A stretch of 63,667 nucleotides of DNA, counting the filler. It is 11 parts of 11 records of this genome, joined end to end, with 100 filler letters (N's around TTAATTAATTAA, not from the genome) between each part and the next. Parts side by side here need not be neighbours in the genome. Positions count along the whole stretch, not along the records: positions 31,993 to 45,042 come from SRR7504441_7822; 10 more parts are not named here. One strand, 5' to 3'. Of this stretch, positions 6,119 to 59,286 are shown piece after piece. Made by a program: the position numbers and the translations under genes. The notes beneath the pieces are model-generated. The model was not told where the DNA came from. It saw nothing but the letters and a program-made list of their open reading frames with translations, and ran no database searches. The first letter of the stretch is position 1. Each line of letters begins with the position of its first letter.

Positions 6119-6218
6119 NNNNNNNNNNNNNNNNNNNNNNNNNNNNNNNNNNNNNNNNNNNNTTAATTAATTAANNNNNNNNNNNNNNNNNNNNNNNNNN
6201 NNNNNNNNNNNNNNNNNN
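6119..6218. other. Artificial contig linker (N44-TTAATTAATTAA-N44)
   Basis: Identical 100-nt six-frame-stop spacer repeated ten times in the window. Confidence 0.98.
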
Positions 6219-12656: not shown

Positions 12657-15600
12657 ATGCGCGCTACAGGGGGCGTTGCGGGGCGGATGCGCAGCTTTGT
12701 GCCGGCCTTCCGCGGGGTCAAGGTGTGGGCCTGGGTGCACCACCAGTGGCACAAGGGCGAGGTATCTAACCGTCCAGGCCCCGCCGCTCAACCTCGGCAG
12801 CTCATCACCGTCCTGCCGCCGGACCAGCTGTCGCTGGCGCTCGACTCCGAAGTCATGGTCTGGCCATTTCCCCCAGATTTAATAGAGCAGCTGGGGGCAG
12901 CCGGTGCCTGTGCCGGTGGAGCACGTGCTGCCGCGGGAGGAATCGGCCTCGATCGACGACTTCGCCCAACTCACCTACGTGCACGAGCCGGCCGTCCAGT
13001 GGGCCATCCGCACCCTCGCCTGCCAGGTGGCCCTGAATGCGATACCCGCCCTAACGCCAACGGCCAGGGGGTGTACTGTGTGCATGCCGGGCCGCACCTG
13101 GTGGTGATCCGGGACGGGCCCGACCGGCACAGGATGCTTAGGTCGGCCGACAGTGCCCAGGCCGCCCAAGACCAACGGCCGCACCAGTTCCAGGCGAGTT
13201 GGTTAGGCCGCGCCTCGGCGAGCACGCGGGCAGTTGGCGCGGCAGCTGTGGGCCGACCACTTTGAGCGGCCGCAGGCTGTGCTGCTCCACGGGGCGTCCG
13301 GATCTGGCAAGTCGCAGACCGCCGAGTCGCTGCTGCAGGCAAGCGGGATTGGTCGGTTGACCACTGAGCGGGGGACAGTACCTGTGCGCAGTGGCTGGGG
13401 TGCCGATCGGCCGGGCCCAGATGCGGCTCAAGCGCTGCCTCAAGCTACTCCAGGCGTTCAGGTGGTTCGTACCCCGACCAGAACCGAGCCGGCTGCAGCT
13501 GCGCCGGCACGGCGGCGGGGGCCAATTCGTCGTACGCGAGCACGCTGCTCAAGGTGAGGATCGTGGACGGCGAGATTGCGCAGGCCAAGGCGCGGCCGGG
13601 CCCGGTGTGCGGGTGAGGCTCTGTGGGCAGATTAAGCTGGTTGGCCTGGCTGTGAGCCAGCTGCTGCAGCCTCACATGAACTCCAACTGGTGGGCTCTTT
13701 ATAATTCTCCGGCCAAGTACCGGTCTCAGGTTTCATGTGATGCACCAGCTGGTGGCTGGTCTGCCAACCGAGCGGGCCCAGACCTTGATGCTGGCTGAGG
13801 TGGCCTTTGGGCTCTCACCACGACTGCAGCTGGCCGGGCTGACTGACGCCGCTGGTTGGGCGGACACGGTGGCGGTGCTGAGTCAGGAGCTTGGCTGGAG
13901 CTCGGAACAGGCTGGCTGGTTGTGGCGAGGGTTGTCTAATCTGCTGGCAGTTGGAGGAGCTCGAGCACCTGCTGGTGGTGATCGCCCATCTGGCCCAGCT
14001 GGATTTCAGGCACCCGACCCAATCCAAATTAGACTAATTGGTCGCAGCGCGCGCGACGGGGCCAGCCTGACTGAGCTGCTCTATTCGCGCTCAGTGACCA
14101 GCCTGGCCGAGTTGCTCAGGATGTCACCTGCCGAGCTGCTCTCCGGGCTGCTCGGACCAGGTGCCCCGACTGGCTGGGCCGTGCTGATCTGGCCGTTGCA
14201 GAGGTGGTGGAGCAGCACATGAACAACGAGGAACAGAGCATAGGCCCGGCGGTGGCCAGCCTGGCCCACTCGAACGTTCTCTCGCTGGCCGGCGGGCTGT
14301 ACAGCGGACTCGTTAGCCTGCTGGTCGAGTCTGTCAATCAGGGGCTGGCCGACTGCTGTACTCAACGGGACGGAAACCTCAAGCGCGAGCATAACTGGAT
14401 CGTGATTGTGGACCGGCCCGGGCTGAACAATCTAAGCGGGGAGGGCACGATGGCCGACCTGTGTAGAAATCTAGCCCATGAGGTCAGCACACAGCAGTTC
14501 GCTTCACATGAGAAGCATCGGTATGCCCTCAGTGTATCGGACTGCATCTAATCTGGGGGGGTAGGCTGGCTGCATTGCACACCGGCCAAAGCCCGGAGGG
14601 TCTGGCACTCAAGCAGGATGATCTGATCCGGTCCGGTCTATGCCAGCAGCAGCTGAGCTGGCAGCAGGTGGGGGCTGCTTCCGCTGGACGAGTCGCTCCC
14701 GCTGCAATTATTCGACAACTCGCTGATTGAGCTGCTCTCCAGCTTTAAGCACCTCCCAATTGCCATGCAGATGCGCACGCTGTACGCTGAGAACTATTCC
14801 CACCCGTCCTTCCGGTGCGGCGGCTGGCACGCAAGCAGCCAACCCGTGTTATAAATAGGCGAAACCTGGACTTTACTGGGACCTGTTTTAGCGTCAAGCA
14901 CACTGGCGGCGAGGTCTTGATTGGTCGAATTAATTTCATGAACTGCGGGACAGGTGATCTACAACCTCGAGCCTCTCGGGCTGCTCGCGGTATTATCAAT
15001 TGCTAGTTCAATTCGATTAAGCGCTGGGCAGCATTCTCACGAGCTAGCGCCGGGGCAACGGAAGCTGCTCAAGCCGCACCCCTCTAGACTGATTCACCAC
15101 CTCATCCAGCCCAAACCACGCAAGCTGTCGGCTCTCGAGGCCATCCGAGCCGACATGAGTGAGCTGTATGACAGTAACCCAACCGCTCGGGGCTGGCCAA
15201 CGGGGTGGGACAGCCACGCTGGCTGGCTACGAGCAGCGGCACTTGTTCCTGATGAAGCCGTTCCTGTCCAGCGACACGGCTGGCAAATCATTTGATTGAT
15301 CAGATAGTTGAGTGGCGGCGCAGGCAACGCCGGGGAGCAGTTTGACGTGTCGGCGATCGTAGAGCAGATGACTAGCTGCAAGCTGATGCAATCGCTCACT
15401 GCCCGGGTGACCGCCACCGTTGGGCTGTTTATGATCCGTCGCAGGTCGGTCTCGAGGCCTCCAGCCGGCTCCAGCGAGTGAGGGAGCTCAATCTACCGGA
15501 GGCCCGCTGGGGCACAGGGGGTGGCAAGGCATCTCAGCTGGCCCAGGCGGTGGTTGCCGGTCTGGGGCTGGCCCCAGCTCAGCAGGCGATGGGGGTCTCT

Positions 15601-16447
15601 CCCGCGCCGGCCAGCTCTCACGGAAGGCTCAGGTCTCACGCGCGCTGCTGTTTGGCGAGCAAATGCAACTGGTCCAGATACTGACAGACTTGCAGCTCGA
15701 GGCGGCAGCACGGCTGCTACAGACCGCCTGGCGCGCATCTCGGCCGACCAAGCCCGAGATATGCGCCCCGCGGCCGGCCCTCCCGCTGCTGCCACCGGCG
15801 GTGCCGGTGGTCCCGGTGTTCGACCCGGTGGCGGCGGCCGAGGACATTTGCCGGGACAAGTCAGCAAGCAAGATCCAGGAGTGGTGGCGCTACCGCCGGT
15901 GCGCTTGATTCATAGCCAGTCCGGGCTGACAGAGTGCGGTGGCAGCAACCAGCAGCTGGTCATCCAGCCGGTGGAGCGGCTGGAAGCCCAGACTGTTGAG
16001 CCTAGTTCTAAGCCGGACCGTCAGCTGAGCAAGGAGGAGCAGCTCGAGCGAGTTGAGGCCGCGTACCAGAAGGCGCTCCAACAGCGGGGTGCTCCCTTAC
16101 AGTGGCTGAGCTGATCGGGTGGGACAGGCGCAGTGATGCAGCAGCTGAGTCCGATCGAGTCGGAGGTGGAGCAGCAGCTGAGCCGAGTATATCAGCCGTC
16201 TACTGTGCTCGACCATAGTGCAATAGATGAGCTGGCCAAGACTAGTCCGCTACGAGTAGCCGCGATTGCTTCGCGGTACCCTGCAGGCAAGTACAACCGC
16301 AAGTATCAGCGCAAGTACGCAATGGCCCCGGATGGCAGCTTCCTAGAGACAGGTTACAACTCAGCGGATAGCTCGGCCAGTAGCTTGACCGATTCAGACG
16401 TAGTCTCGTCGGATGATGAGGGACTAGACAATATGATGCTCGCTTAG
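12657..16447 (+). CDS. Highly divergent myosin-like protein (N-terminal SH3-like region, motor domain, two IQ motifs), many introns
   Basis: Spliced motifs IDDFAQLTYVHEPAV, HGASGSGKS (P-loop, 13291-13314), LQAFSCAGTAAGANSSYAST, NWFHVMHQLVAG, IVIVDRPGLN, LCRNLAHEVSTQQF, LLQTAWRASR, KIQEWWRYRR occur in myosin order. Exon boundaries in the 3' half are less certain. Confidence 0.75.
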
Positions 16448-16805: not shown

Positions 16806-18280
16806 ATGAAGGGTGACGAGGAGGAGGAGCACTCGCTGCTCGGGAACGGGAGCGACAGCAAGGCGAACGGAAACAACACCCGGCTGATCGACGAGTACGA
16901 GGCTCGAGTCAAGCAGCGTGACCTGACCGGGCAAGACCCAACCGACCGGCCGGTCTCGTTCCTCAAGGCAGTCCGCCAGCTGCACGACGAGCAAGGCGGG
17001 CGGGTCAAGATCGCCAAGGAGCTCTCGTACGACCCGCAGATCGATCGCAAGTGCTGGGTCCTCGCTGGGCTGGCCGTGCTCTCCATTTTGCTCTACATCA
17101 TTCACATGGAGGTCAACTTCAAGAAGTCCGAGCGGTACATGGACAACAGCAGCCCCACCTCCTACGTCATGCGGTACGCGCTTACCGTGGTCACCGCGCT
17201 GCTGCTGTGCGCCCTGTTTGATTACTATCAGCTGCTAGTCTACATCTACCGCCGGTACCAGACTCCCAACCCGGAGGATACCAGCGACGCCTGGCCGCGC
17301 GAGTTTATGTTCTCGTTCGCGGTAGAGTTTGTGCTCTGCTTGATCCACCCGATCCCCGGGGTGATCAACAACAAGCTTGGGGCGTTCATCTGCCTCCGGC
17401 TCTACCTGTTGCTCAACTTGGTACGCAGCTACTCCGAGGTCTACCAGCAGAGGAGCCTCATATACAACTCTGGTCACCTCAAGCGCGGGGGCGAGCGGAT
17501 CGACACCGAGCTGTGCATCAAGATCATCGTCTCCCAGAGCCCCGGCCGATGTCTCGCGCTTGCGCTTGTCACGATTGGGCTGCTGATGGGCTACGGCAAT
17601 TACATCTGTGAGCGCCGGCCTGCAGCCTGTGCTGACCCAGGGGCAGGCATGCGCGAGGGTCTTAACGGCGCCGACCTGACATATTGGAAGGCGGTCTGGA
17701 GCACTGCGTTCCTGCTCATGCGGGGCGTCCCGCTCCTGGACAACTCCGGCAGCACAGCAGGGAGGGCGATTGAGCTGGCCACAGCGCTGGTCGCGTGCAG
17801 CTGCCGGCTGGGCTGACGGGTGGGCAGGTCGGGCTGGTGCTACTGGCGATCGTGGTGTCGCTGGTGGTGGAAATGATGAACGTCTCGCACGCGGAGGAGT
17901 TTGCACTCACTTGGCTTGAGAGGCACAAGTCGAGGCGGAAGGCCGAGGTCTACGCCGCCGAGCTTATCCAGGCATGCTGGCGGCTCCACCAGCTCAGGGT
18001 GCGTTGGCCTGCCGACCCGCTCACTCTGCCGCAGGAGAAGAGCCCGGGCGAAGTGACGCTTGAAGTGGAGTATTTTTTCAACTCGCTGATTACGCGGCAC
18101 GGCAAGTTCCGCGACGAGCGGAAAAACCAGGAGGATTTGAGCCTGGATGCGGCGCACGACAAGGCGCTTGAAGTGACTCGCGAGCTCGACAATGTGGTGC
18201 AAGACATTGACAGCATTAAGAACGTGCAAGACGATCTGCTCCGCACGTTTGACGAGATTGATGACAACGTCTCGATCTAG
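16806..18280 (+). CDS. SK/KCNN-like calcium-activated channel homologue with degenerate pore (2 introns)
   Basis: TM helices with SK-type motifs (LIHPIPG, FICLRLYL, YICER) and a CaM-binding-like segment AEEFALTWLERHKSRRKAEVYAAELIQACWR followed by a coiled coil. Confidence 0.7.
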
Positions 18281-28032: not shown

Positions 28033-31000
28033 ATGAATCATGCGTTCGACCAGCTGTGCCGCGACGAGGTGCCGTCCTACCCGCTCTGGCAGTCGCCGTG
28101 CTTGGTGGACGCACTGGTGGTCAGCCCAGCACTCTTGCTGCTTCTGATTGTCTCCACTGCACGGATCCTGCGCGCGCCGCCCAAGGGGCTGGCAGTGGGC
28201 AGCTCGATCCGCGCCCCAATCTGCCTGGGCCTGGCGATGGGCTCGTTTGCTTGCTTCGCGCTCCAGTGCACAGAGGTGCTCGCCTATCCGCTCGGCGCTT
28301 CCCACAAGCAGTCCAGCCTCCCTCCGGCTGCATACATCTGGGTATCGCTCTCTGTGGTTGGCTGGTTCGCTGCAGGCGCCGATGTCGCCCGGCCTGACTG
28401 GTACGCGCTGCCCCCCCTCGGGCTGACGGCAGCGGCGTTAGCTGCCCGCTGCGCCACCACCGTGCTGCACGGCACATGGAACGCTGCAGGGGCTTACGCC
28501 GTCAGCCTGGAGGCCATCGGGTCGTTGCTGGTGCTCGCCTCCGCGGTGGGTCAGTGGTCGTCCGGTCTGTCGCGAGGGCGATCGCTCGAGCCGGTGGCGT
28601 ACCAGCCGGCAGGGCAAGATAATCTGGCCAAGGAGGAGACGGCCGGGCTGCTGAGCACCATCACGTTCAGTTGGGTCTCTCCGCTGATGCACCTGGCAGT
28701 GGACCGGATCAGCCAGGGCAGCGCGCTGGAGGAGGCCGACCTAGAGGCGGAGATGCCGTTATCGCGGTGCGACACGTCGGAGGAGGTGTACCGGGTCTTT
28801 CATGAGAACTGGACCGATTCAGGCGAGCAGCTGGCACCTGCCCTGCGGCGAGGGTTTGGTCTCCTTTTTGTCCAGGCAGCAGGAATGAAGCTGCTTTACG
28901 ACACCGGACAGGTCGCGTGCCCGCTCATGCTGCACGCCATCATCACTTACTTGAACGAGGACGCGGTTGGCCCATCCCAGAAGGGGATTGGGCTGGTTCT
29001 AGGCCTGCTGGCCATCAATGTTAGCCAGACAGCTGTATTGCACCAATATTTTCTCCGCATGTTCAGACTCGGACAGCAACTCCGGTCGGCGGTCATCCTC
29101 GCGGTGTACCGCAAGTCACTGCGCGTGCCGCCTGGACAGTGCAACTCGGAGCAAGATTCGGGTAAGACCATCAACCTGATGACAACCGACGCAACCAGAA
29201 TGCAAGACCTGACAACATATTTGGGCAGCCTGTACTCTGGTCCTTACTGCATTGGGCTCTGTCTGTTCTTCCTGTACCGGACGGTCGGGACGGCCATGCT
29301 TGCGGGACTTGGAGTGATGGTGCTGATGGTACCGGTCACAGGAATTATTGCGAGGCTCACCAAGATATATCAGAATGCACTGATGCAAGCCAAGGACACG
29401 CGGATACAAATAACAAACGAATGCGTCACTGGAATAGAAATCATCAAGTGCTCGGCCTACGAGGCCGCGTTCGAGCAGTCGATTGGTGCAGCCCGTGGAA
29501 AGGAGTTGCGTCGCCTCCTTGAGTATCAAGTGCTTCAGGGAATGTCTTCGGTCTTGTGGCAGGCAGTGCCTGTGATGGTAGCGCTGGCCACATTCGTCAC
29601 CTACACCTATCAGGGCAATAATCTGGACGCCGCAACCGCCTTCACTGCGCTAGGCCTGTTCAACGTACTCAGATTCCCATTGACCATGTTTCCAGCCACA
29701 ATCAGCAATTTGGTCGAAGCGAGCATCTCTGTCAAGAGAGTTCAGGATTATTTGCTACTAGCAGAGTTGGACCCCGAGGCCGTAGACTCTGCCTCCGCCG
29801 ACAGCGGTCGGGCAGACCTGAGCGTGGCGATCCAAGTGACTGGGCAAGGTGGGGCGCATTTTGTGTGGAGCATGGACCAGCTTGCTGCCACAGCCAATGA
29901 GGGATCAGCTATTGATCCCAATCCGCTGTCAGAGCCAATGCTCAAGACCGATGGAGCTATGCGATCCGAAGGATTTGAGCTCAAGGGTCTCGAACTTGCC
30001 ATCGGGCAGGGTGAGCTGGTGGGGGTAGTGGGCCAAGTGGGTTGTGGCAAGTCGGCGCTGCTGCATGCACTGCTGGGCGAGATGAACAAACTCAAGGGGA
30101 CTGTTAAAGTCAATGGCACTGTAGCCTACATCCCCCAATCAGCCTTTGTGCTGAATGACACCGTCGAGAAGAACATCACATTCGGACTTCCAATGTATCC
30201 GGAGCGTTATGAAAAGGCCAAGCGGCTCTCCTGCCTCCAGCACGACCTTGAGAGCGACGCAATGCCTAAAGGAGATCAGACACAGATCGGTGAACGTGGC
30301 CTCACACTCAGCGGAGGCCAGAAACAGCGTGTGAGCCTAGCCCGGGCCTTGTATCGAGATGCCGATGTGTATCTCTTTGACGACTGCCTCTCAGCCCTGG
30401 ATGCTGCAGTCGGCCAGAAAGTCTTTGAGGAGTGTATCCGGACTGCTCTGGCTGGGACAACGCGGGTTTTGGTCACTCACGCTGTGCAGCATCTGCCCCA
30501 CTGCGACCGAGTGTTAGTGCTCCAGAACGGTACAGTTATCGAGCAGGGAAGCTACAAGGAGCTTGTCGACCAAGGCGCCGCGGTATTCCAGAGCTTTGTT
30601 TCCTCACATGAGGCGAGTGTGAATGAGATGGTCGAGATTGCCAATTCCACTTCAGAGGACCCCTCTGGACTTCCTCCGGAAGAACAAGCAATCGAAGAGG
30701 CTGCAAAGATGGCCAAGAAGCGCAAAACTGAGGAATTGGACGAGAGAGCACAGCGCAAAGAGGTTCGGCTGAAGGGATCTGTAGACAAGAAAGTCTATTG
30801 GAGCTACGCCAGAGCCACAGGAGGGGTGTGCATGGTGCTCAGCATCGCAATGCTGGCCACATTTAACCAAGGCAGCTCTGTTGCGACCAATTACTGGCTA
30901 TCCTATTGGAGTAGCCATGGCGAGGATCATGACTCTTCATACTTTCTGGATATCTATGCGGCCCTGGCTTGCTCCAATATCGTAATTATGGCCTGTGGGA

Positions 31001-31892
31001 ACCTCGTGCGTGCTTGGGCAGGAGTGAAAGCTTCCCGAGTTCTGCACGAGACTCTGCTGGCCTGTGTGCTCAGGGCCCGGCTCTCTTTCTTCCTTACAAC
31101 ACCGACAGGCCAGATCACGAACCGCTTTGCTCAAGGTAGCCCCTATTAGGCTGGCCGGTCGGGTCGCTGATTGGGGGCAGATGTTTACACGGTTGACGAG
31201 CAGCTGCCTCAGACAATGAACATGCTGATCTTATGCATATGGAATGTAATGGCCACATTGGCCCTGATTGTGGCTGTCACGCCTTGGTTTGCACTGGCTA
31301 TCATTCCACTCGGTTTCTTGTACTATCGGGCCCTCAAGTACTATGTGGCCACCAGCCGCGAGGTCAAGCGGATCGAGTCTATCGCCCGCTCTCCCATCTA
31401 CTCACACTTTGGCGAGACTCTGCAAGGCTGCACCTCCATCAGAGCATATAACATGGACGCAAATTTCTCCCTCAAGAATTCGAGTCAGCTCGACTTGAAC
31501 CAGCAAGCTTACTTTGCAGGCACCTCAGCCAATCGCTGGCTTGCAGTTCGGCTTGAGTTCGTGGGTTCGGCCATCGTCTTTGGCTCAGCCTTATTTGCTG
31601 TGATAGCGAGAGGCGACATCGACCCATCGCTGGCTGGCCTTTCGGTTTCATACGCACTTGGCGTCACACAGACTTTGAACTGGATCGTGCGGATGGGCGG
31701 ACAGGCAGAAACCCAGATCGTGTCAGTTGAACGGCTTGGAGACTACGATAAGCAGCAGAAAGACGGCACTATCCTGGTCGAGGACGAACGGCACACAGAT
31801 GCCTGTGTCCCAACAGGCTGGCCGCAGCAGGGCACGATTGAGGCAAAGGGCTTATCTGTGAGGTGGCGGCCAGAACTGCCTCTTGCAATGCG
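28033..31892 (+). CDS. ABC transporter, ABCC/MRP subfamily (3'-partial)
   Basis: TMD0, TMD1, NBD1 (GQVGCGKS, GERGLTLSGGQKQRVSLARA, YLFDDCLSALD), TMD2 (TPTGQITNRFAQD, RSPIYSHFGETLQG, WLAVRLE, VSVER); intron 31136-31180. Confidence 0.95.
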
Positions 31893-34731: not shown

Positions 34732-37309
34732 ATGGACCTTTCGGACGGGCTCTCCGACGATGGGTTTCCTGGACTGGCTTGTTCTGACTCGTTCTTAGAC
34801 GAAGTGCTGGCCGCCACCAAGCGGGCAGAAAGTCACCGGCTGCCGCCAGCGTCCGCCGAGCAGGCCGCAGTGGTGCAGGATCTGCAGGCAGGCTGCTGCG
34901 TCGCTGTCGACAGCGTGGCCGGCTCGGGTAAGACAACGACAATGCTGCTGGCGTGCAGCGCACTCAAGCGGAGGGCGCTCGTGGTGACGTACAACCGGGC
35001 GCTGGCGGACGGCTGCAACGCGCGGATCGAGCAGCTGAAGCTCAACGCCAGGTGCTACACTTACCATGCGCTGGTGGGGCGCTCGGCCCAAGCGTCATGT
35101 AAGGACGACGCAGAGCTGCTTAGAATAGTCGCAAGATGGGACAAGGGCGAGGCTGTGAAGCGGCCACCTGAGGAGGACCTGGTACTTTTGGACGAAGTGC
35201 AGGACCTCAGGCCGAGCTTTGCACAGGCGCTGGTCCATGTGCTCGGGGCACGGTCCGAAGGTCCGTTGCAGATGATGGTGGTGGGCGATAATGATCAATT
35301 ATTATACGATTTCCACACCTATGGCCAGGACAAGGCCACTGCTGCGTACCTACAGCACCCGAAGCATTACTTTGGCCACCTGACCGGTAAGAAACCCTGG
35401 GTGCGCCGCACACTCAACACGTCATATAGACTTACACCTCACATAGCCTCATTCGTGAATGCGATATGGGGGACCACAATCATTCCAGGAAACCGAACAA
35501 GCCAGAATGAGCCAGTTCAGTACTGGTGTAAATATCCCTTCCCGCAAAGCGAGTCGTGGCAGACTGATAGCCTTTGCACCGATTGGCTCGAGGAAATTAT
35601 CAAAGGTGCCCCCACTTCTGGTCTCACATTTTGACTGCTTTCACAGAACACGGTTCGGAGAACGTGATGATGCTTGCTCAGAGTATCAAGAGTGAAAAAT
35701 CGCCTATCATGGTACAGATGAATGAGCTCTCGGCCCGAGGGTACTGTTTTCTGGTCCGTGACCACGAACGAGGCTTTGAAAACAACAGCGATTATAAAAA
35801 CAAGACTCGGGTGGGCACGTTCTGCTCTTCCAAAGGCTGTGAGGCCGAAGCTGTGATCGTGTTTGGTTTTGATATGCGTGATGAGAACACAAAACCGCCG
35901 GTGGGTGTGCAGCCTAGAGCTACAATTGATAACTTCGCAGGGCAACCAGATGGGTGTGGCTCTGTCACGAGCCAGGAGCCGTCTATATGTGGTGCATGGT
36001 GGGAAATTTACCAAGGGTGAATTCGAACCTTACAGGTACTTTCCTTGCTGTGGCAGGGAGGACGTCACACGTGCATCCGATGAAGCCCATGCTAGAATCA
36101 TGGGACTGCTAGCAGCAGGGGTAATCGACGGCAATCCTCCCGAGGAAACCTGTGCTGATTCTGAGATAGATTCCATATTGATAGACGCAGTGGTGACAGA
36201 CTTCACCCACTTCTCTGCTTTGGAGCTCGAACGTTTTTTGCAGTATGCAACTTGGGAGATGGTGAATGGTGCCACAGTGGATATCCAGTATGAGACCCAA
36301 GTGCAGTGCGAGCGCACCATCGAAGATGTTAGTGCAATATATGGAGAGTGTGTCCCGCTGGTAATGCAGTGGCAGCGGATGGGCTTCTGTCCAAAGGTCG
36401 AGGACACTTTAATTGGGCCAATCGTGCTCGACAGTAGCTCTTGGTATTCACGGGATGAATTTGATCAGGAACTGGAAAGAAAGGAATGCTGCCCAAGCAA
36501 GGAATCTTCCAAGGCACTGGACCGACAATTTGGTGGCAAGAAAGTCAAGGGGCGCAAACTAATCAAGCTGGTGAATGAGGAGCTACGAATAGTGCGCCAA
36601 AGAGGCGATGGCAGGGTATCGGAGTATAGAGTCAAAGCTATGGAGACCCAGCTTTATGATACTTTGATACACGACCAGCTGAACATTGCCAAAGGGATGT
36701 ATGAAAAGGCTTGTGATTGTAATACTGCATCTTGGATGTATTTGGCCAATGTGTGCCTCGCTGTCGGCGGCTTTCATGAGGTGCCTCGCTAGGCAAGGCA
36801 ACGCTAACCGTGAGGCCTAGGTGCTTCGACAAGTTGGCAGGCACACAACGTACAACGAATGGGTAAATGAAGGAGCGGTTGCTGAAGGTGTTAAGCAACT
36901 GGAGCTTTGTCTTGAGCAAGGGAGAGAAGGTGCCTTTGAGCAGCCATTGGAATACGCATTTAAGCCTCCCATTCAAGGACGGAGAAAAGAGGAGGTCTTG
37001 ACAATCTCTGGAATTGCGGACTGGGTTAGTGATGCAAGCAACTCCTGTGAGCTTATGGAGTTCAAATTTGTCAAAGAACTGTCGAACGAACACAAGCTAC
37101 AAGTGCTGCTCTATGCAGCCTTGCGTGCGGTGGAGCTCAGTACGACTTGCAATGGTGCCTTGTTTAATGCTAGAACAGGAGAGAAGGTCGCATTGAGTAT
37201 TGACCCCAAGCGTGCTTTGGAACTGCTGCATGAAATTGTGGTATTCAAATACGGTAATTCATCGCGCAAACGAAAATTGGGTGTGAGACGACCCGGCCAA
37301 CTAGTTTGA
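34732..37309 (+). CDS. SF1 (UvrD/Rep-like) helicase fused to a C-terminal PD-(D/E)XK nuclease (3 introns)
   Basis: SVAGSGKTTT, VTYNRAL, TYHAL, LLDEVQD, VGDNDQLLYDF, SYRLT, TFCSSKGCE, VALSRAR; C-term ISGIAD...MEFKFVKELSNEHKLQVLLYA. Confidence 0.85.
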
Positions 37310-39124: not shown

Positions 39125-40783
39125 CTATTTGTCGGCCCCGAGCTCGATTGGCAGCCCGGTAGCCCGGTCTATTAGCGTTTCCTCCGTCGGGAGCACTTGC
39201 GCCCCGCCTCCGGTGCAAGTCGAGTACATGTACTTGACAGGCGTTGCCACCTGCCCGGCCAGTTGGCCCGGATGGCTTGACCCGGCCTACCGATGAGTCG
39301 TGGAATCGGTCGCACGCTGCTGCAAGCTCGGGCGCGACCCCTACCGCCATCGCTTGGGCATACGCCTGGTCGTCGTTCATCGGGCAGTCAAAGTACCGTT
39401 TCATCAGGGCAGTGAGCTCATTCAAGTGCGGCTCAGTGGTGTAAATCACAGCATTCGGGCCAGCATCAAATGTGTACGCTGCGCGGATCTGCGGCTGCAC
39501 TCAGCACAGCAGAGCGACGGGGCTCACACACCTCCTGTGCCCAGTCGTTGTATGCGTGCACCATGTTGATAATCGAACGCGAGGTGTCGTTCATATAGAA
39601 GATCGGTGGATACCTGTGCCCGTGGGTTGCGCCGGCCCGCCCAATCAAGGCTCACGTATCAAGGCAGGTCGCGTGAAACTGGTTGCTATCCTGCATTGTG
39701 ATCCGACCAAAGGTGCCAAAGTCTTTGGCCAAGAAGGCCGCTTTGAGTTCTTCCAGCCGACCGGGCACAATGCAGCTGGCCCGGTGCCGGAGCAGCTCTG
39801 AGGTCGCCACGCTCGTGCCCATCCCCGCGGTGCTAGAGGTGCCCTTCTTGGCATCGGAGACCACAAGAATCAACGCCCGAATCTCTGGCCAGTGGTGCTG
39901 CCCCCAGCCGTCAGCCAGCAGCCGGCTGGTCAGTTGCCTCATCAGCGATTTGCTTGGCAATGCTGTCACTCCCGTCTTCCATCTCGCCAGCAGTCCACTC
40001 GACCAGACCACCGTACAGACTCCGGCTTGCTGAGCCACTCCCTTGCCGGGCAATCGCCGTCAGCTGCCCTGGGAATTCCTCCTCCGCAGCGAACAGCTCG
40101 GCGAGCGCTTTGGTCAGCGCAGCGTACCCAGCAGCCGACGAGGCGAGCCCGGCCGCAGTAGGAAAAGTATTCTTGGACACAACGTGCACCTTGTACAGCG
40201 GCCAGTCGGCCTTGCGTACCAGCACCCCCGAGTACGCATCCCGTTTATCCTGCCCGGGGCGGTCAGCTGCCGCCAGCCGGCAGGAGTCACCTGAGCCAGC
40301 CGGCGGACGGCTGCGAGCACAGTCTGGAACCGCTTGTTGTTGCTCACATCCTCCTCGACCCCGTTGAGCCAGAGCCGATCGCTCTCGTAGTCGGGCGAGG
40401 CCGCCGCGCTGGTGATGGCCCGAAGGTGCCGTTGGTCGAGCGTCAGGCTGGCGCTGCTGTTGATGGGGGTGTTGAGTCCGGCGTCTTTCTTACCCCAGTA
40501 CCTGCGGCCCGGCTGAGCCGCACGGCCGGCCGACGGGCGACTTGATCACGGCGATGTTGGTCGGGGCCGAGACGTGGGCGTGCACCGTCTTCTTCCCGGG
40601 TGAGTTGCGGATCTTGCATTCGTCATATGTCCGGTGCTTGTCGTCGTCTCGCCGCTCTGTCCTGGCCGCCGGAGGTCAGCTAGGGCGTTGGGCGGGGGGA
40701 GCGGGCCTGGAGTTGTGGCTTGGCGTGTTGGCCAGCAGCGACGACATGTTCCAGCCCAGCGTCTTGCCCTTGTCGGCGGCCAT
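39125..40783 (-). CDS. MVD: Diphosphomevalonate decarboxylase (7 introns)
   Basis: [73 protein letters not shown] after splicing. Confidence 0.95.
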
Positions 40784-40876
40784 GATCGATCGGTCGCTTC
40801 AAGCTGTAACGGACTTACGAAGCTCAGTGCTCGACTGGACGGTGGCACCGGCAGCCGGTGGGCCATGGGCCTGTGC

Positions 40877-41502
40877 ATGTCCGAGGAGGACTGGGAGTCG
40901 GGCATGGGCTACGACGAGTGCCCCGTGGGGCTGGCCTGGCCCGACTTGCTGCAGGGAGAAGGCGATCCAGGACCAGAAGGAGCGTGACGCCCTGGCGCAT
41001 CGGTGAGCCAACCGGCCAACTCGGCGGCCAGCCGGCTGCAGCCAAAACCTCAAGCTGAAACGCGAGCTGGCGGCCAACAAGCGGGTGCGCCGTCTGCCGT
41101 TCCGCCGGTGCGAGCCGGCCGTCAGGAGGAGATGCGCGAGAACGCGTTCGAACTGGACCTGAATGTGGTACGCGCCGACACCGGTCGGTCGGGGGGGCTG
41201 GGCTGTCGGGAGCGCCGGGGCAGGCAAAACCTACCCGATGCAGGTGCTCGGGTACGAGACAGTGGCGGTGCTCAAGGTGGGCTAGTGGGCGGCGGGGCGG
41301 AGGGCCGGGCAGAACCGGCTCCAGCTGCTGATGCGGGACACCCCGCTGCTGTACGAGCCCGTATTGTACTATAAAGGGCTTCCGATGCTCGACGGGCGCA
41401 CGTTCAGAGTGCCTGGCCGGCCCGGGACCGGCTGACCGGTCGTAGGAGCTGCAGGTGCGGAACCAGAGCACGCTGAGGATGGAACTGTCAGAGATAGGCT
41501 GA
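40877..41502 (+). CDS. Small protein with C-terminal ubiquitin-like domain (6 introns)
   Basis: Spliced product ...ELDLNVVRADTGKTYPMQVLGYETVAVLKNRLQ...LYYKGLPMLDGRTFRELQVRNQSTLRM matches the beta-grasp pattern. Confidence 0.7.
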
Positions 41503-41591
41503 TTGCAATAAACCAGGTTTGGTATATACATATCGTTGGAACACACCCACGAGCGCATAGGGTTGCTCACTCAATTCCGACCGATTTAGAA

Positions 41592-42452: not shown

Positions 42453-44762
42453 ATGGCATTCAGAAGAGGTCTCTCTCGCTTCCTGGCATGTGTCTCTCTC
42501 GGGCTGCTGGCCCTCGCTGCGGCGGAGCTCTGCCCGATCCCGGCGTCACTGCAGCTGAACAAGCTGCAGCTGGCGCCGCCGACCGACTCGATCCACCCGG
42601 CCGCCGTCGCCAGCTGGCTCGGCGCCATGCAGCTGTGGCGCGAGAGCTGCCGGGCGAGTCTGCGGTTGGACCCGGCAATCTATTCAGTGCCCGGGCTGGG
42701 CTGGACCCAGACGGCCTACATGCAGCCGCTGGCGATGCCGTTCGACCGTTACTTCTACAACGACTCGCGCCAGGAGTACTCGGTCGACCGGTACTTGGAC
42801 TCGCTCGAGGAAGCGTACGGCGGGGTGGACGCGGTCTTGCTCTGGCCGACCTATACCAACATCGGGGCGGACGACCGGTCCCAATTTGAGATGATCCAGG
42901 CGCTGCCTGGCGGCGAGCCAGCGCTCAGGAAGGTAGTCGGGCAACTACACGCCCGGGGCGTCCATGTCCTATGGCCGTACAACCCGTGGGACCAGGGCAC
43001 CAACGGCGGGCACCCCACCAACAGCACCGCGGCCGGCGCGGCCGACGCGGCCCGGCTGGCCTCGTTGCTCTCTGCAACGGACTCTGACGGTTTCTTTGGT
43101 GACACGATCTCGTCTTCAGGCCTCGAGAAGTTTTACGAGGATTCAGTGGCTAGCGGGCGGCCCGCGGCGATTCAGCCCGAGGCGGGCGGGACCTTGGACA
43201 GCATGAACTACACCACGATCGGGTGGGGCTACTGGGGTCAGGTCGAAGGCCCGCCTCCGGTCGATTTACTCAAGTGGATTGAGCCCCGATGGATGACTCA
43301 GCCTTGCGCCCGATGGGAGCAAGACAAAAACAATTGGCTCCAAACTGGCTACTTTAATGGGGCCGGGTTCGAGACATGGCAGAACATCTGGGGCATCTGG
43401 AACGGAATCACGGCCCACGACGGCGAGGCGCTCCGGCGAGTCGGCTCAATTCTTCGGTTCTTTGGCTCACGAGGGTTTCTGACTAGTGCCGGTTGGCGAC
43501 CGCATGACCCGCTGGTCGGGGCCGAGCGGTGGCCGGTGTACGGGTCGGCATGGCCGGTCGGGGATGAGACGGTCTGGACGATGGTGAACCGTGGTGCCAA
43601 CCAGACAGCAGGCCCGCTGCTGGCTGTGGCTGCAAATGACACTCGACGGTACTGGGATTGCTATGGTGGGGCCCAGCTGCAGCCCAGCGGCGGGGCCGTC
43701 ACCGTGGTGATCGAAGCTCGTGGGTACGGCTGCATTCTGGCCACACCGAATGCGACACTGGATGCTGCCACAGCGGGATTCATGCAGAAGATGCGCCAAA
43801 TGACGGCTGGCCGCCCGCTGGCAGGATTCTCGACGACCTGGGCGCCGCTCCCACAGACCATCCGGCCGATTCCGCCTACTGCGCCGCATAGCGAGACGCC
43901 AGCCGGGATGGTAGAGATACCGGCCGTGCCGCAGTATCAGTTCGTGGTGCAAGGGGAGGAAATCGAGGGCGTCACGCTATTCCAGTTGAGCTGGACCTGG
44001 AACGGGCAGCGGGCGGTTGGAGTGGATGTTCAGTTCCCGTGGGAGCAATCGGCTCGGCCGTGGCACGCGCACAACCTTTCAGTGCCGCGCTTCTTCATCG
44101 ACCGCACACCGGTCACCCGAGCCGCCTACCAAAGCTACCTCCAAGAGAGCGGATACGCGCCCGCGGATTCTCACAACTATCTGCAAGGATGGAGCCATTC
44201 AGCTGGCCAGTGGATTGCGCCGGCAGCAGACCTACAGAAGCCGGTGACACACGTTAGCCTGGATGAGGCAAGGAAGTACTGCCGACACTACGGCAAGCGA
44301 CTGCCACACACCTGGGAGTGGCAGCTGGCAGCGCAGGGCACCGACGGCCGGAAATTCCCGTGGGGCAACGACCTTGCTGGACTGACTGATGGCGTCCGGT
44401 GCCCGCGGGTGCAGAACAGCACCAACGGACAGGCGATGGCGACACTGCTCTCGAATGTGACTGCGCACCCACAGGGAGCTAGCCCATATGGCGTGATGGA
44501 CATGGTTGGAAACGTCTGGCAGTACACAGATGAATTCTCAGACGTGCATACACGGGCTGTGCTCCTCCGCGGTGGCAGCGTGTACTACCCCCGTGTCCCG
44601 GCCGGTCAAAACTGGTATTTCCCGAACTCGGATCGGTCGTCGGCAGCGAAAGGCGAGCCGACGTTGGCGATGCGGGACTTGTCGACACATGGCAAATACT
44701 TTCTAATGAGCGACAGCTACGAGCGGGCGGGGACGATTGGGTTCCGTTGCGCGGCCGATTGA
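42453..44762 (+). CDS. Secreted protein with N-terminal glycoside-hydrolase-like region and C-terminal FGE/SUMF1-type domain
   Basis: Signal peptide; FFIDRTPVT, PVTHVSLDEARKYC..GKRLPHTWEWQLAAQG, FPWG, SPYGVMDMVGNVWQYT, LRGGS, IGFRCA; intronless. Confidence 0.8.
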   Translation: MAFRRGLSRFLACVSLGLLALAAAELCPIPASLQLNKLQLAPPTDSIHPAAVASWLGAMQLWRESCRASLRLDPAIYSVPGLGWTQTAYMQPLAMPFDRYFYNDSRQEYSVDRYLDSLEEAYGGVDAVLLWPTYTNIGADDRSQFEMIQALPGGEPALRKVVGQLHARGVHVLWPYNPWDQGTNGGHPTNSTAAGAADAARLASLLSATDSDGFFGDTISSSGLEKFYEDSVASGRPAAIQPEAGGTLDSMNYTTIGWGYWGQVEGPPPVDLLKWIEPRWMTQPCARWEQDKNNWLQTGYFNGAGFETWQNIWGIWNGITAHDGEALRRVGSILRFFGSRGFLTSAGWRPHDPLVGAERWPVYGSAWPVGDETVWTMVNRGANQTAGPLLAVAANDTRRYWDCYGGAQLQPSGGAVTVVIEARGYGCILATPNATLDAATAGFMQKMRQMTAGRPLAGFSTTWAPLPQTIRPIPPTAPHSETPAGMVEIPAVPQYQFVVQGEEIEGVTLFQLSWTWNGQRAVGVDVQFPWEQSARPWHAHNLSVPRFFIDRTPVTRAAYQSYLQESGYAPADSHNYLQGWSHSAGQWIAPAADLQKPVTHVSLDEARKYCRHYGKRLPHTWEWQLAAQGTDGRKFPWGNDLAGLTDGVRCPRVQNSTNGQAMATLLSNVTAHPQGASPYGVMDMVGNVWQYTDEFSDVHTRAVLLRGGSVYYPRVPAGQNWYFPNSDRSSAAKGEPTLAMRDLSTHGKYFLMSDSYERAGTIGFRCAAD

Positions 44763-53461: not shown

Positions 53462-54668
53462 CTATTTGGCGGCGACCATCTCCTTGACCTTCTGCTCTAG
53501 CAGCCGTTGGTCCTTGGCGAAGTTCCGGATCCCCTCGGCCAACTTCTCAGTCGCCATCGCATCCTCGTTGTGGTGCCACCGGAACTGCGCCTCGTCCAGC
53601 GACATCTGCTCCATGTCGAGCGCCCCCGCCGCCTCGGGCGTCAGCTTGGCCGCCACAGGGTCCTGTCCGCCCGGTTAGCCCTCGAATCCGACAGGCTGGC
53701 TGCCTGCATCTCTCCTAGCAGCTTTAGCAGCTTTGGGCTGACTGTGAGCGAGTCGCAGCCGGCCAGCTCGAGGATCTCGCCCACGTTCCGGAACGAGGCG
53801 CCCATGACCGTTGTCTGGTAACCGAACTTCTTATAGTAGTTGTAAATCTTATGCACGGACAGCACGCCCGGGTCCTCCGCTGCCTCGTACGACTCCTTGC
53901 CAGTGGACTTCTTGAACCTATCCCGGCTGAGCCCCGGGCCCGGCCAGCCCCGCACCAGTCCATAATCCGCCCCACAAACGGCGAAATCAGCGTCACCTTG
54001 GCCTCAGCGCACGCTACTGCCTGGGTCGCACTCAGCCGGGCGGCCAGGCCGGCGGCGCACCTGGGCGAAGGAGAAGAGCAGGGTCATGTTGCAGTGGATG
54101 CCCTCTTTCTCCAGTTGCTCGCCCGCCTTGATTCCTTCCCAGGTAGACCCCAGCTGCCCCGCCGCTCGCCGCGGCTCACCGCCGGGGGGCGCGCCTTAAT
54201 CAGAATGCGATCCTTGTCGATACCCATCTCCTTGTACATCCCGATCAGCTCCCTGGCCTTGGCCAGCGACCCTGCCCCCCGCTCGGCCGGGCCCGGGCCG
54301 CGGGGCCACCCTCGGTGTCGAAGGAGAGTCTGGCGTCGACCTCGGTAGAGACCCGCCCTGGCACGATCTTGAGGATCTGGCCCCGCCTGGGCGGCCGCCC
54401 GACCGCGGGGCAGCACCTCCGCCCCGAAGTTGACCGCCAGCTTGTCGCAGATGGTGGCCACCACGGTGGGGTCGTCCTTGGACTTCTTCTCCAGCCCGTA
54501 GGACACCGCCGAGTCGAAAAGCGCCGAGTACTTCTCCATCTTGGAGGCGGCCAGGATCAGGGACGGGTTGGTGGTGGCGTCCTGCGGGGTGTGCTCCTGG
54601 ATCGCGTCCACGTCGCCCGTGTCGGCCACGATCACTGTAAGCTTCTTGAGCTGCTCGAGGGACGACAT
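53462..54668 (-). CDS. TALDO1: Transaldolase (6 introns)
   Basis: [80 protein letters not shown]. Confidence 0.96.
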
Positions 54669-54740
54669 CCTGTTGCTCGGGCCACTGCACGGCCAGTAGA
54701 AAGTAACGGCAGCCCAGAATTTACGATTTGCTTTCGCAGC

Positions 54741-56065
54741 ATGCCCAACTCCAAGGAGAACCCGCTCGAGGCGCCCGCAGCTGGGGCCGGCGGCTCAGCC
54801 GGAGGGGGCAGGCGCTGCGTAAGACCGGGAACACGGCAGCCCAGCGGGTCCCGCTCAAAAGCTCCCGGTCCAGCAACGAGCCGGGCGAGAGCACCAGCAA
54901 GATGGGGCCGCCGCTCACAGAGAAGACCAGGATGCGCTCATCCAGCAGCAAGTGTCTCCCGCCCACGGACCGGGCTGAGCCGCGCGGCAGGCCGGCGCCG
55001 GTCCCTAGACTGGCCAACAGGACGCAGGAGTCCAGCGAGCGCCGGTGGACGCTGGCCGACTTCGACATCGGCAAACCGCTGGGTCGCGGCAAGTTCGGTA
55101 ATGTGTACCTAGCGCGGGAGAAGCGGACAAAATACGTCGTGGCGCTCAAGGCAGCCGGGCGGGCCGAGCGGGTCTGAGCCTAGGACAGGTGCTGTTCAAG
55201 GGCCAGCTGCAGAAAGCGCAGGTGGAGCACCAGCTGCGGCGCGAGATAGAGATCCAGTCGCATCTGCGGCACCCGAACATCCTCCGGATGTACGGCTACT
55301 TTTACGACCAGAACCGGATCTATCTGATCCTAGAATACGCCCCTAAGGCGCCCCCCCCGCCGTGTCGACACTGAGCCCACGCAGGGCGAACTGTACAAGC
55401 AGCTGCAGAAGGTCGGACGGTTTGAGGAGAAGCGAGCGGCCCAGGTGGCCGGGCCTGCGGGGCTAGCTGAGCCTGCGGGCAGTACGCGCTGCAGCTGGCT
55501 GGGGCACTCGACTACTGTCACTCTAAGCACGTGATACATCGGGACATCAAGCCCGAAAACTTGCTGCTCGGGGCCATGGGCGAGCTTAAGATCGCGGACT
55601 TCGGCTGGTCCGTGCACGCGCCCCACTCGCGCCGCAAGACGCTTTGCGGGACGCTCGATTATCTGCCGCCGGAGATGGTGGAGGGCAAGGACCACGACTG
55701 CGCAGTCGACCTTTGGAGCCTCGGGGTGCTCATTTATGAATTTATTGTGGGGAATCCGCCGTTCGAGGCGGCGGTGCCCGGGCTGGGCCGGGCCAGCGCT
55801 GACCGGCGGGCAGGGGCACACTGAGACGTATAAGCGTATCACGCGAGTACAGATGGAGTTTCCGGAATTTGTTTCGCCAGGCGCGGAGGACTTCATCTCG
55901 CGGCTGCTGGTCAAGAACTCGACCGACCGGATGAAACTGTCCGAGGTGCCAACGGGGCGATCCCGGGCTGACGGGGGACAGGTGCCGTCGCACCCTTGGA
56001 TCAGGCAGCACTGCCACCAGGAGATAGCCGACCTAGACAAGCTCATGCAAGAGCTGAACGTGTGA
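54741..56065 (+). CDS. Aurora-family Ser/Thr kinase (7 introns)
   Basis: [87 protein letters not shown]. Introns 54771-54811, 54952-54990, 55151-55188, 55348-55384, 55445-55482, 55774-55813, 55946-55981. Confidence 0.96.
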
Positions 56066-58562: not shown

Positions 58563-59286
58563 ATGGGAGACCCGGCGGTAACGCGCACCTTGAGCCATGA
58601 TCTGACTCCGGCTCCAGATCCTCCTCAAGATCGAGCAGGAGCGCTGCTTCAAGATCCAAGACAAGGACGGCGACGGCGGGCTCGACCCGCAGGAGATGGC
58701 CACCTTCCTCCGGGCGCTCGGGCTGAGCCCAGACAACGCCACGGTGCCTGCTTGCCCGCCACCCCAGCGAGCCCAGCGCGTGCAGATCAAGTCGTTCGGG
58801 CCCAAGCTGAGCCTGGACGACGCGATCAAAAAGTACGAGGAGCTAGCGGCCAAGGAGGCCAAGCAGACCGAGGAGAGCCTGCTCGAGCTGTTCGAGGCCT
58901 GGGACCCCGGCCACCGGACTGGCGAGGTGCCATTCGACCCCGGGCGGGGCCCGAAGGCTGTGGGCAGGTCTCGTTCGGGGAGTTTGCGCGGGGACTGACC
59001 ATCTTTGGGAAGAGTGAAGGCGAAAACTTTTCGGATGACGAGGTGGCCCCCCTGCGGCTAGGCGGGGCTGGGCGGGGCTGGGCGAGGCTGGGTCCAATGT
59101 GCTGACTGGAGGGGGCAGATCACCAAACTTAAGATCACTCTCGGGATCCAAAGCGAGGACGCGCCACTCAAGTACAAGGAAGTGATCAAGCTGCTGCTAC
59201 AGACAAACCAGCCGCATCTGGTAGCCTCGCTCTCTGATGACCCCGAGCAGTGGCCGCGCTTCCCCAACTCGCACTATGAGCAATGA
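58563..59286 (+). CDS. Calmodulin / myosin-light-chain-like EF-hand protein (4 introns)
   Basis: CFKIQDKDGDGGLDPQEMATFLRALGLSP and LLELFEAWDPGHRTGEVSFGEF after splicing. Confidence 0.75.

Follow-up and report, generated by a model that had tools for sequence, protein, structure and literature searches.

The genes in a window of 63,667 bases, the whole stretch of DNA analyzed here, are interrupted by micro-introns of about 40 nucleotides (nt), including six predicted introns in a gene at 40865-41502 on the plus strand. These micro-introns are genuine spliceosomal introns. They are probably the ordinary U2-type (GT-AG and GC-AG) introns of a Telonema-like, GC-rich marine protist, shrunk near the spliceosome's minimum, with a branch adenine (A) that is constrained from both splice sites. 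The original prediction, centered on the interval 40877-41502 and extended to the window, had instead proposed that the branch A is placed by a ruler from the 5' splice site. That position matters was borne out, as a positional prior raises the log-likelihood of the 71 predicted introns described below from 36.6 to between 88 and 101. The ruler itself fails, because the branch A moves farther from the 5' splice site as introns lengthen, the distance to the 3' end is comparably tight, two verified introns depart from it, and a two-sided model wins throughout.

Genes were modeled with our own dynamic-programming finder, in which codon log-odds were trained on the window's long open frames and splice sites were scored by position weight matrices (donor, -3 to +6; acceptor, -4 to +1). 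A weak length preference favored introns of 33 to 60 nt by 3 log units, and the letters of intron interiors were not used. Gene finding with GT donors only yielded many "introns" of 53 to 126 nt, broke the Aurora, transaldolase, and MVD proteins, and was dropped. Reading the Aurora kinase gene by eye revealed introns starting with GC; with GC donors allowed, nearly all introns measured 36 to 47 nt and the conserved proteins were unbroken. The main set comprises 71 predicted introns of 33 to 47 nt in genes scoring at least 15. The wider set holds 81 predicted introns of 33 to 60 nt, 67 of which are 36 to 44 nt long. Predicted introns longer than 47 nt (18 of 96) are unverified and were kept out of the main counts; at least one of them, at 36781-36840, holds a whole 40-nt intron beginning at the identical donor. 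In addition, 19 introns have external support from RNA contigs, transcript-derived protein, or ungapped homology and count as verified (six each in the MVD, transaldolase, and Aurora genes and one in an ABCC-type transporter gene). These are 36 to 45 nt long, with a mode of 40. The length distribution is narrow, unimodal, and close to its lower bound, as in minimal-intron architectures. The finder was base-exact for 11 of the 12 introns verified by RNA or transcript, before that evidence was seen. Among the 19 it erred once, at the last Aurora intron, where it chose 55982-56020; this was corrected manually to 55946-55981.

Excision was demonstrated for 12 introns, which are present in the DNA and precisely absent from RNA. 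Five are removed at RNA joints, one is marked by a pair of RNA loose ends, and six are missing from P0001, a transcript-derived protein identical to the spliced gene; the introns at 40918-41445 are not among the 12. In the MVD gene (minus strand), the five joints in RNA run X3 equal predicted introns base for base, one of them GC-AG, and DNA contigs are continuous at these places. The intron at 39251-39290 (40 nt, GT-AG) has As at +27 and +28, counted from the 5' splice site; an X3 RNA contig skips it exactly, while an X1 DNA contig keeps it. X3 joints also define the introns at 39614-39655 (42 nt, GT-AG), 39898-39937 (40 nt, GC-AG, seen as CT..GC on the plus strand, with a CTGAC A at +27), 40250-40290 (41 nt, CTGAC A at +28), and 40502-40541 (40 nt, one internal A, at +28 in GCTCAGC). 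The sixth MVD intron, at 39489-39531 (43 nt), is based on RNA contigs with loose ends at 39490 and 39532, the letters behind 39490 being found at 39534. Its only As are at +8, +31, and +36, with none at +26 to +29, and the A at +31 stands in a CTGAG, 12 nt from the 3' end.

The spliced translation of the transaldolase gene (minus strand) shows 100% identity to P0001 (330 residues, from a 1009-nt contig) across all 322 residues. This identity, together with a source contig too short for introns, indicates that six introns are removed. They lie at 53663-53703 (41 nt, GC-AG, GCTAACC), 53918-53955 (38 nt, GCTCAGC with its A at +28), 54021-54060 (40 nt, CTGAG A at +29), and 54154-54194 (41 nt, GC-AG, with the A of the branch zone at +29 in GGCGAGC). 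The remaining two, at 54272-54309 (38 nt) and 54377-54416 (40 nt), each have one internal A, at +27 in GCCGAGC and at +29 in GCCCAGG, respectively.

Six junctions of the Aurora gene (plus strand), three of them GC-AG, are ungapped relative to P0131, P0132, and P0133, transcript-derived proteins of relatives with 92 to 93% identity in the query exon. Intron 1, at 54771-54811 (41 nt, GC-AG, CTCAG A at +27), interrupts a junction, NPLE/ALRK, that is contiguous in P0131. The kinase-domain alignment with the three proteins supports the introns at 55151-55188 (38 nt, GC-AG, CTGAG A at +27), 55348-55384 (37 nt, GC-AG, CTGAG A at +27), 55445-55482 (38 nt, CTGAG A at +26), and 55774-55813 (40 nt, CTGAC A at +29). 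The manually curated last intron, at 55946-55981 (36 nt, CTGAC A at +26), restores the motif HPWIRQHC, again ungapped against all three. A probable intron 2 at 54952-54990 (39 nt, CTGAG A at +27) is in frame and free of stops, and a gap in the P0131 alignment fits it in size; it could alternatively be an indel. The claim holds that in all seven Aurora introns a CT(G/C)A(G/C) places its A at +26 to +29.

The last verified intron, at 31136-31180 on the plus strand (45 nt), belongs to the ABCC-type transporter gene. When the flanking exons were aligned to human ABCC3 (8hvh_A), the match stopped at residue 1073 (query residue 99/100) and resumed at 1076. The break is just wide enough for the final residue and the split codon, which makes the junction free of indels. 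The As of this intron lie at +3, +10, +13, and +35 only, none of them at +26 to +29, and the A at +35 belongs to a CTGAT 10 nt from the 3' end.

An A is present at +26 to +29 in 65 of the 71 predicted introns, compared to an expectation of about 40% given 10.8% A at positions +7 to +22, and 11 to 14 nt before the 3' end in 62 of the 71. Among the 81 introns of the wider set, A counts anchored at the 5' end are 20, 26, 22, and 18 at +26 to +29, with flanking counts of 4 to 9; counted from the 3' end, the highest values are 22, 20, 20, and 19. The A peak is genuine, well over the background of about 11%, and equally sharp from either end. In the verified introns, an A occurs at +26 to +29 in 17 of 19 and 10 to 14 nt from the 3' end in all 19.

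The two distances were compared in 31 unambiguous introns, each with a single A that is 20 nt or more from the 5' end and 7 nt or more from the 3' end. This A lies 25 to 29 nt from the 5' end in 30 of the 31 and 10 to 15 nt from the 3' end in all of them. Standard deviations (SDs) of length, 5' distance, and 3' distance equal 1.98, 1.73, and 1.41 nt for all 31 (covariance, -0.54) and 1.70, 1.04, and 1.39 nt for the 30 that remain without the single 45-nt intron (covariance, -0.05). Regressing the 5' distance on length gives a slope of 0.63 +/- 0.11 in the former case and 0.35 +/- 0.09 in the latter. These slopes differ from 0 (P values of 5e-6 and 8e-4, respectively) and lie 3.3 and 6.9 standard errors below 1. 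Accordingly, a ruler from the 5' splice site does not describe these introns. The mean 5' and 3' distances grow together with length, from 26.5 and 10.5 nt in 37-nt introns to 28.0 and 13.0 nt in 41-nt introns.

In a likelihood comparison, all candidate As were summed, weighted by the branch motif, and scored by leave-one-out. For the 71 predicted introns of 33 to 47 nt, the log-likelihood was 36.6 with a uniform prior, 88.1 with a 5' prior, 91.6 with a 3' prior, and 101.5 with both. The corresponding values for the 19 verified introns were 25.1, 39.1, 44.3, and 49.3, and those for 82 predicted introns of 33 to 80 nt, unverified long ones included, were 37.0, 94.3, 80.3, and 109.2. The two-sided prior was the best in every set. 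Branch calls by best motif regardless of position often fell on GTGAGC beside the donor; the regressions derived from them were noise and were not used.

Expectation-maximization with a uniform positional prior recovered the branch motif G-C-T-G-A-(C/G)-C. The pattern CT[GC]A[GC] occurs in the branch zone of 33 of the 71 predicted and 12 of the 19 verified introns, whereas 300 shuffles of the interior sequence gave 2.7 +/- 1.5 (maximum, 8). CTNA is found there in 40 of 71 and 14 of 19, and a T two positions before the A (-2) in 50 of 71 and 14 of 19. The branch context had been called highly degenerate, which overstates the case in view of this excess and remains apt for the minority of introns in which the motif is weak. 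The reported absence of a polypyrimidine tract was confirmed, positions -9 to -4 being 55% G and 38% pyrimidine. This absence does not exclude a U2-type assignment, since the tract is also missing in accepted U2-type lineages, according to the part of PMC2483917 consulted. The acceptor reads GCAG in 44 of the 71 introns, and AGs up to about 6 nt from the branch are skipped, even the one inside CTGAG, for instance in the RNA-supported intron at 39489-39531.

All 19 verified introns end in AG, with 13 GT and 6 GC donors, a feature that had been overlooked. GC donors account for 18 of the 81 predicted introns as well as for 6 of the 19 verified ones (e.g., 39898-39937 and 54154-54194 on the minus strand and 55151-55188 and 55348-55384 on the plus strand). 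Within the set of 33 to 47 nt, the exon ends in AG (positions -2 and -1) before 16 of 16 GC donors, compared to 21 of 53 GT donors. This exon AG before a GC donor would be the usual compensation, through pairing with U1. The introns were also screened for U12-type signals, for which we took the donor [AG]TATCC and the branch TCCTTAAC as the motifs; among the 71 introns, the [AG]TATCC donor occurred in none and CCTTAA in none.

The low A content of the introns had been attributed to a depletion of competing As. Positions +7 to +22 contain 10.8% A and 15.6% T, and third codon positions of the same genes contain 10.9% A and 12.6% T. Moreover, intron A tracks third-position A across 14 genes (rho of 0.64, P of 0.014). 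This match and the gene-by-gene tracking point to the composition of the gene bodies, not to an intron-specific purge. Exactly one internal A, said to be a property of many introns, was counted in 10 of 71, and these fall in the genes with the highest GC content. GC reaches 76.5% at third codon positions and about 70% in intron interiors, while intergenic DNA has 53% GC and 23% A; gene bodies are much richer in GC than the DNA between genes, and GC per kilobase ranges from 0.44 to 0.72 across the contigs. On the sense strand, intron interiors hold 138 GGG versus 63 CCC, 42 GGGG versus 16 CCCC, and 14 GGCTGG versus 5 CCAGCC. These G-runs are reminiscent of the G-triplet enhancers in small vertebrate introns.

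In the explanation we prefer, the 5' arm (5' splice site to branch A) would span about 26 to 29 nt and the 3' arm (branch A to acceptor AG) about 10 to 14 nt. Either arm would be close to its own lower limit, with steric limits presumably setting the arm lengths. The arms would vary independently and add up to the narrow length peak at 37 to 41 nt; the 5' and 3' distances of the 31 single-candidate introns have a covariance of about 0 (-0.05 to -0.54). The A near +27 would then be a by-product of this two-sided packing. In most introns, the branch would be marked by the U2-complementary motif (G)CUGA(C/G), and where the motif has eroded, the only A in the zone may serve. The acceptor would be the first (G)CAG sufficiently downstream, in the absence of any pyrimidine tract, and GC donors would be compensated by an obligatory exon AG. 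We infer that the zone A serves as branch point throughout and that U2, SF1, and U2AF act in the conventional manner.

Several observations weigh against this explanation. The T at -2 is absent from 13 of the 31 unambiguous branch sites (9 C and 4 G), including the transcript-verified GCCGAGC, GCCCAGG, and GGCGAGC, so canonical U2 pairing would be poor there. In the 30 unambiguous introns of 36 to 43 nt, the 5' SD of 1.04 nt is smaller than the 3' SD of 1.39 nt, although not significantly (Pitman-Morgan P of 0.13). Once unverified introns of up to 80 nt are counted, the 5' prior outscores the 3' prior (94.3 versus 80.3), in support of the original prediction. This advantage may arise because several long predictions appear to consist of a ~40-nt intron, with which they share the donor, plus misjoined sequence. 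At +7 to +22, A is rarer than T (123 versus 177, P of 0.002), which allows for some selection against extra As. The predicted introns outside the verified 19 come from a simple finder that is biased to 33 to 60 nt and misses stop-less in-frame introns (5749-5787, 12762-12800, and 54952-54990).

Some of these features would also suit a two-sided geometric caliper, in which the bound 5' and 3' splice sites pick the branch A within an intron-definition complex of about 40 nt, U2 pairing is largely dispensable, and G-runs mark the intron. The sites without a T at -2 (about 40% of the unambiguous ones), the missing pyrimidine tract, and the twofold excess of GGG over CCC are compatible with such a device. 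If it were true, it would be accompanied by diverged or lost functions of SF1 and U2AF65. We regard it as rather unlikely.

A purely 3'-anchored arrangement, in which a CTGAC-type motif is constrained only in its distance to the acceptor and the +27 peak merely reflects the narrow length distribution, is unlikely as well. An A 10 to 14 nt from the 3' end in 19 of 19 verified introns speaks for it, as does the advantage of the 3' over the 5' prior in that set; moreover, fixed branch-to-AG distances are known from several lineages (PMC2483917, in the part consulted). However, the 3' distance also lengthens with the intron, and the 5' distance has a slope that falls short of 1 by 3.3 to 6.9 standard errors. 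Pure 3' anchoring further predicts a 5' SD of about 2.2 nt (from the length SD of 1.70 and the 3' SD of 1.39), whereas 1.04 nt was observed, and the two-sided prior gains 5 to 10 log units over the 3' prior alone.

Improbable, too, is the 5' ruler, by which the branch A would sit at a fixed distance of about 27 nt, competing As would be removed, context would be irrelevant, and a derived mechanism of intron definition would operate. It draws on the A at +26 to +29 that 65 of 71 short predicted introns and all seven Aurora introns carry, the slightly smaller 5' SD, the 13 of 31 sites without a T at -2, the 10 of 71 introns with one internal A, and the 5' prior's lead once unverified introns of up to 80 nt are included. 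In contrast, the 5' distance climbs with length (slope of 0.35 to 0.63), and the verified introns at 39489-39531 (43 nt) and 31136-31180 (45 nt) carry their CTGAG and CTGAT 12 and 10 nt from the acceptor, outside the ruler's reach. The 3' prior outscores the 5' prior for the verified introns, the canonical motif exceeds shuffles about 12-fold, and introns match synonymous sites in A content.

The six introns of the gene at 40865-41502 (36 to 41 nt) are predicted on the statistical support of the gene model, which scores 20.7; among 300 dinucleotide shuffles of the region, the best scored 1.8 and none had an intron. Intron 1 lies at 40918-40954 (37 nt, GT-AG, one internal A at +27 in CCCGACT, 10 nt from the 3' end) and intron 2 at 41003-41041 (39 nt, GT-AG, As at +4, +8, +9, +16, +17, and +28, the last being the zone A in GGCCAGC). 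Introns 3 and 4, at 41085-41125 (41 nt) and 41184-41223 (40 nt), have one internal A each, at +29 in TGCGAGC and at +28 in CGGGAGC. They are followed by intron 5 at 41277-41312 (36 nt, As at +8 and +25, the latter in GCGGAGG) and intron 6 at 41409-41445 (37 nt, CTGAC A at +27). The A positions given in the original prediction for introns 1, 3, and 4 are correct at the sequence level, as is the A at +27 in its minus-strand examples at 5874-5913, 5749-5787 (39 nt, sole A), and 54272-54309.

RNA run X3 has no contigs over 40693-41562 and is thus uninformative for or against this gene. Its largest exon retrieved no homologous protein in a search, a Pfam search with a 32-residue exon gave no match, and an exact 34-base scan of metagenome contigs returned 0 matches. 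Across the last junction, the C-terminal exons appear to resemble a ubiquitin fold, which would also favor the gene model. That the pieces within 40877-41502 are not introns, forming instead a chance GT..AG chain in GC-rich noncoding DNA or lying opposite a coding minus strand, would fit the missing RNA cover, the lack of a homolog or Pfam match, and a minus-strand open frame of 248 codons (40827-41570), but is highly improbable given a model score of 20.7 against at most 1.8 in all 300 shuffles, a finder that was base-exact on 11 of 12 RNA- or transcript-verified introns, and a GC content by codon position of 0.73/0.61/0.65 in the minus-strand frame, where genuine window genes have 0.38 to 0.52 at the second position.

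Stop-less in-frame introns of 36 to 42 nt, which open reading frame (ORF) logic reads as coding, were seen at 5749-5787 (minus strand), 12762-12800, and 54952-54990 (both plus strand), and perhaps also at 17999-18034 and 58744-58785 (both plus strand). A scan for in-frame introns by splice-site and codon scores did not separate them from coding sequence rich in Glu, Ala, and Gln. The set contains few 39- and 42-nt introns; since in-frame introns are inseparable from coding sequence, this shortage may be a detection bias, or it may be a genuine deficit.

The arrangement is a known kind of minimal-intron architecture in a new lineage; a new mechanism is not shown. In Stentor coeruleus, introns of 15 to 16 nt carry the branch A at position 10 in 90.9% of cases with a weak consensus, all small nuclear RNAs (snRNAs) are present, and the U2 recognition site is conserved (PMC9505925, in the part consulted). 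The introns studied here share the very narrow lengths, the nearly invariant position of the branch A, and the weak branch consensus with those described in that part of the source. They differ in being about 40 nt long, GC- and G-rich instead of AT-rich, with CTGA(C/G) in about half of them, a position that holds to about +/- 2 nt from either end, and GC donors in a quarter to a third. High shares of GC-AG introns are reported, in the part of PMC3033335 consulted, for the GC-rich marine picoeukaryotes Aureococcus anophagefferens (39.6%) and Micromonas pusilla (22.2%). The genome studied here resembles them in its unusually high share of GC donors and high G+C content but belongs to a different lineage, near Telonema.

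The part of PMC2483917 consulted describes an ACTGAC branch motif and a CGCAG acceptor in Ostreococcus, a constrained branch-to-AG distance without a pyrimidine tract in Yarrowia, Trichomonas, and Giardia, and a tendency of very short introns toward degenerate signals. A CTGAC-type motif, a (G)CAG acceptor, a constrained branch-to-AG distance, and a missing pyrimidine tract are common to this group, as far as that source covers it, and the introns studied here. However, the lineages in that group are intron-poor with a very strong consensus, whereas some genes here have 6 to 21 introns and the motif is moderately conserved. The branch-to-AG distance is 10 to 14 nt here, compared to 2 to 4 nt in those lineages and 20 to 35 nt in Ostreococcus. 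Human ultra-short introns (37 to 65 nt) are G-rich, with G triplets and poor standard branch and 3' signals, and one known enhancer of them contains GGGGCTGGG (PMC4463651, in the part consulted). They are similar to the present introns in length and G-richness, but they are rare exceptions in humans, whereas here such introns are the default type.

A literature search, covering its sources in part, found no description of telonemid nuclear introns. Telonemia form an orphan branch of the eukaryote tree whose gene structure is seemingly undescribed. Annotators of marine eukaryote metagenome bins should expect introns of 36 to 45 nt, a quarter to a third of them starting with GC: ORF-based callers read through stop-less in-frame introns, and GT-only callers break the genes of this organism. 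The introns also add a GC-rich case to the minimal-intron lineages and offer a way to tell a 5' ruler from two-sided packing.

Exon 1 of the transaldolase gene in the window has 88% identity to a transcript of Telonema subtile (EukProt accession EP00656), the closest named sequence; other named organisms reach about 60%. On the basis of this difference in one gene, as opposed to a phylogeny, the source organism, a marine protist, is treated as a putative relative of Telonema. The contig at 31993-45042 shares words with public runs from marine and aquatic metagenomes and one metatranscriptome, the shares being small (0.05 to 0.14) and not read as evidence of habitat. Compared to DNA contigs of runs X1, X2, and X4, it shows 95 to 99% likeness, with scattered single-base differences and small indels; the sources of these contigs are presumably related strains.

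The start of the transaldolase protein P0001 lies eight residues ahead of the genomic ATG (54669-54690, minus strand). A seventh transaldolase intron, suggested by these eight extra N-terminal residues, was rejected, as the genome matches from the third codon; none was counted. The leading ATGGG of P0001 is presumably the end of a template-switch oligonucleotide. If this holds, the 5' end of the transaldolase mRNA lies near 54686, about 55 nt from the modeled start codon (54741) of the divergent Aurora gene.

The window consists of 11 separate contigs of 3.3 to 13 kb each, joined by spacers of the form N44-TTAATTAATTAA-N44 (6119-6218 and nine others), so arguments from neighborhood across the spacers are void. 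An Rfam scan of the window gave 0 families at threshold. Pfam identified an FGE-sulfatase-domain protein (42453-44759, plus strand), the ABCC-type transporter (28033-31890, plus strand), an SK-channel-like membrane protein (16806-18280, plus strand), an ankyrin-repeat protein (8758-11194, minus strand), and a UvrD/AAA_19-type helicase (34732-35605, plus strand). At 3428-4210 (minus strand), the AT-richer 3' part of a gene has longer predicted introns of 44, 50, 53, and 60 nt, and its exons encode an apparent C-terminal J-domain, as we take its HPDK motif to indicate. A gene modeled at 12687-16447 (plus strand) has 21 predicted introns and a P-loop exon at 13246-13338, and Pfam gives no clear family for it. 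Among the introns of the window, those of this gene are richest in A/T, with 16.6% A.

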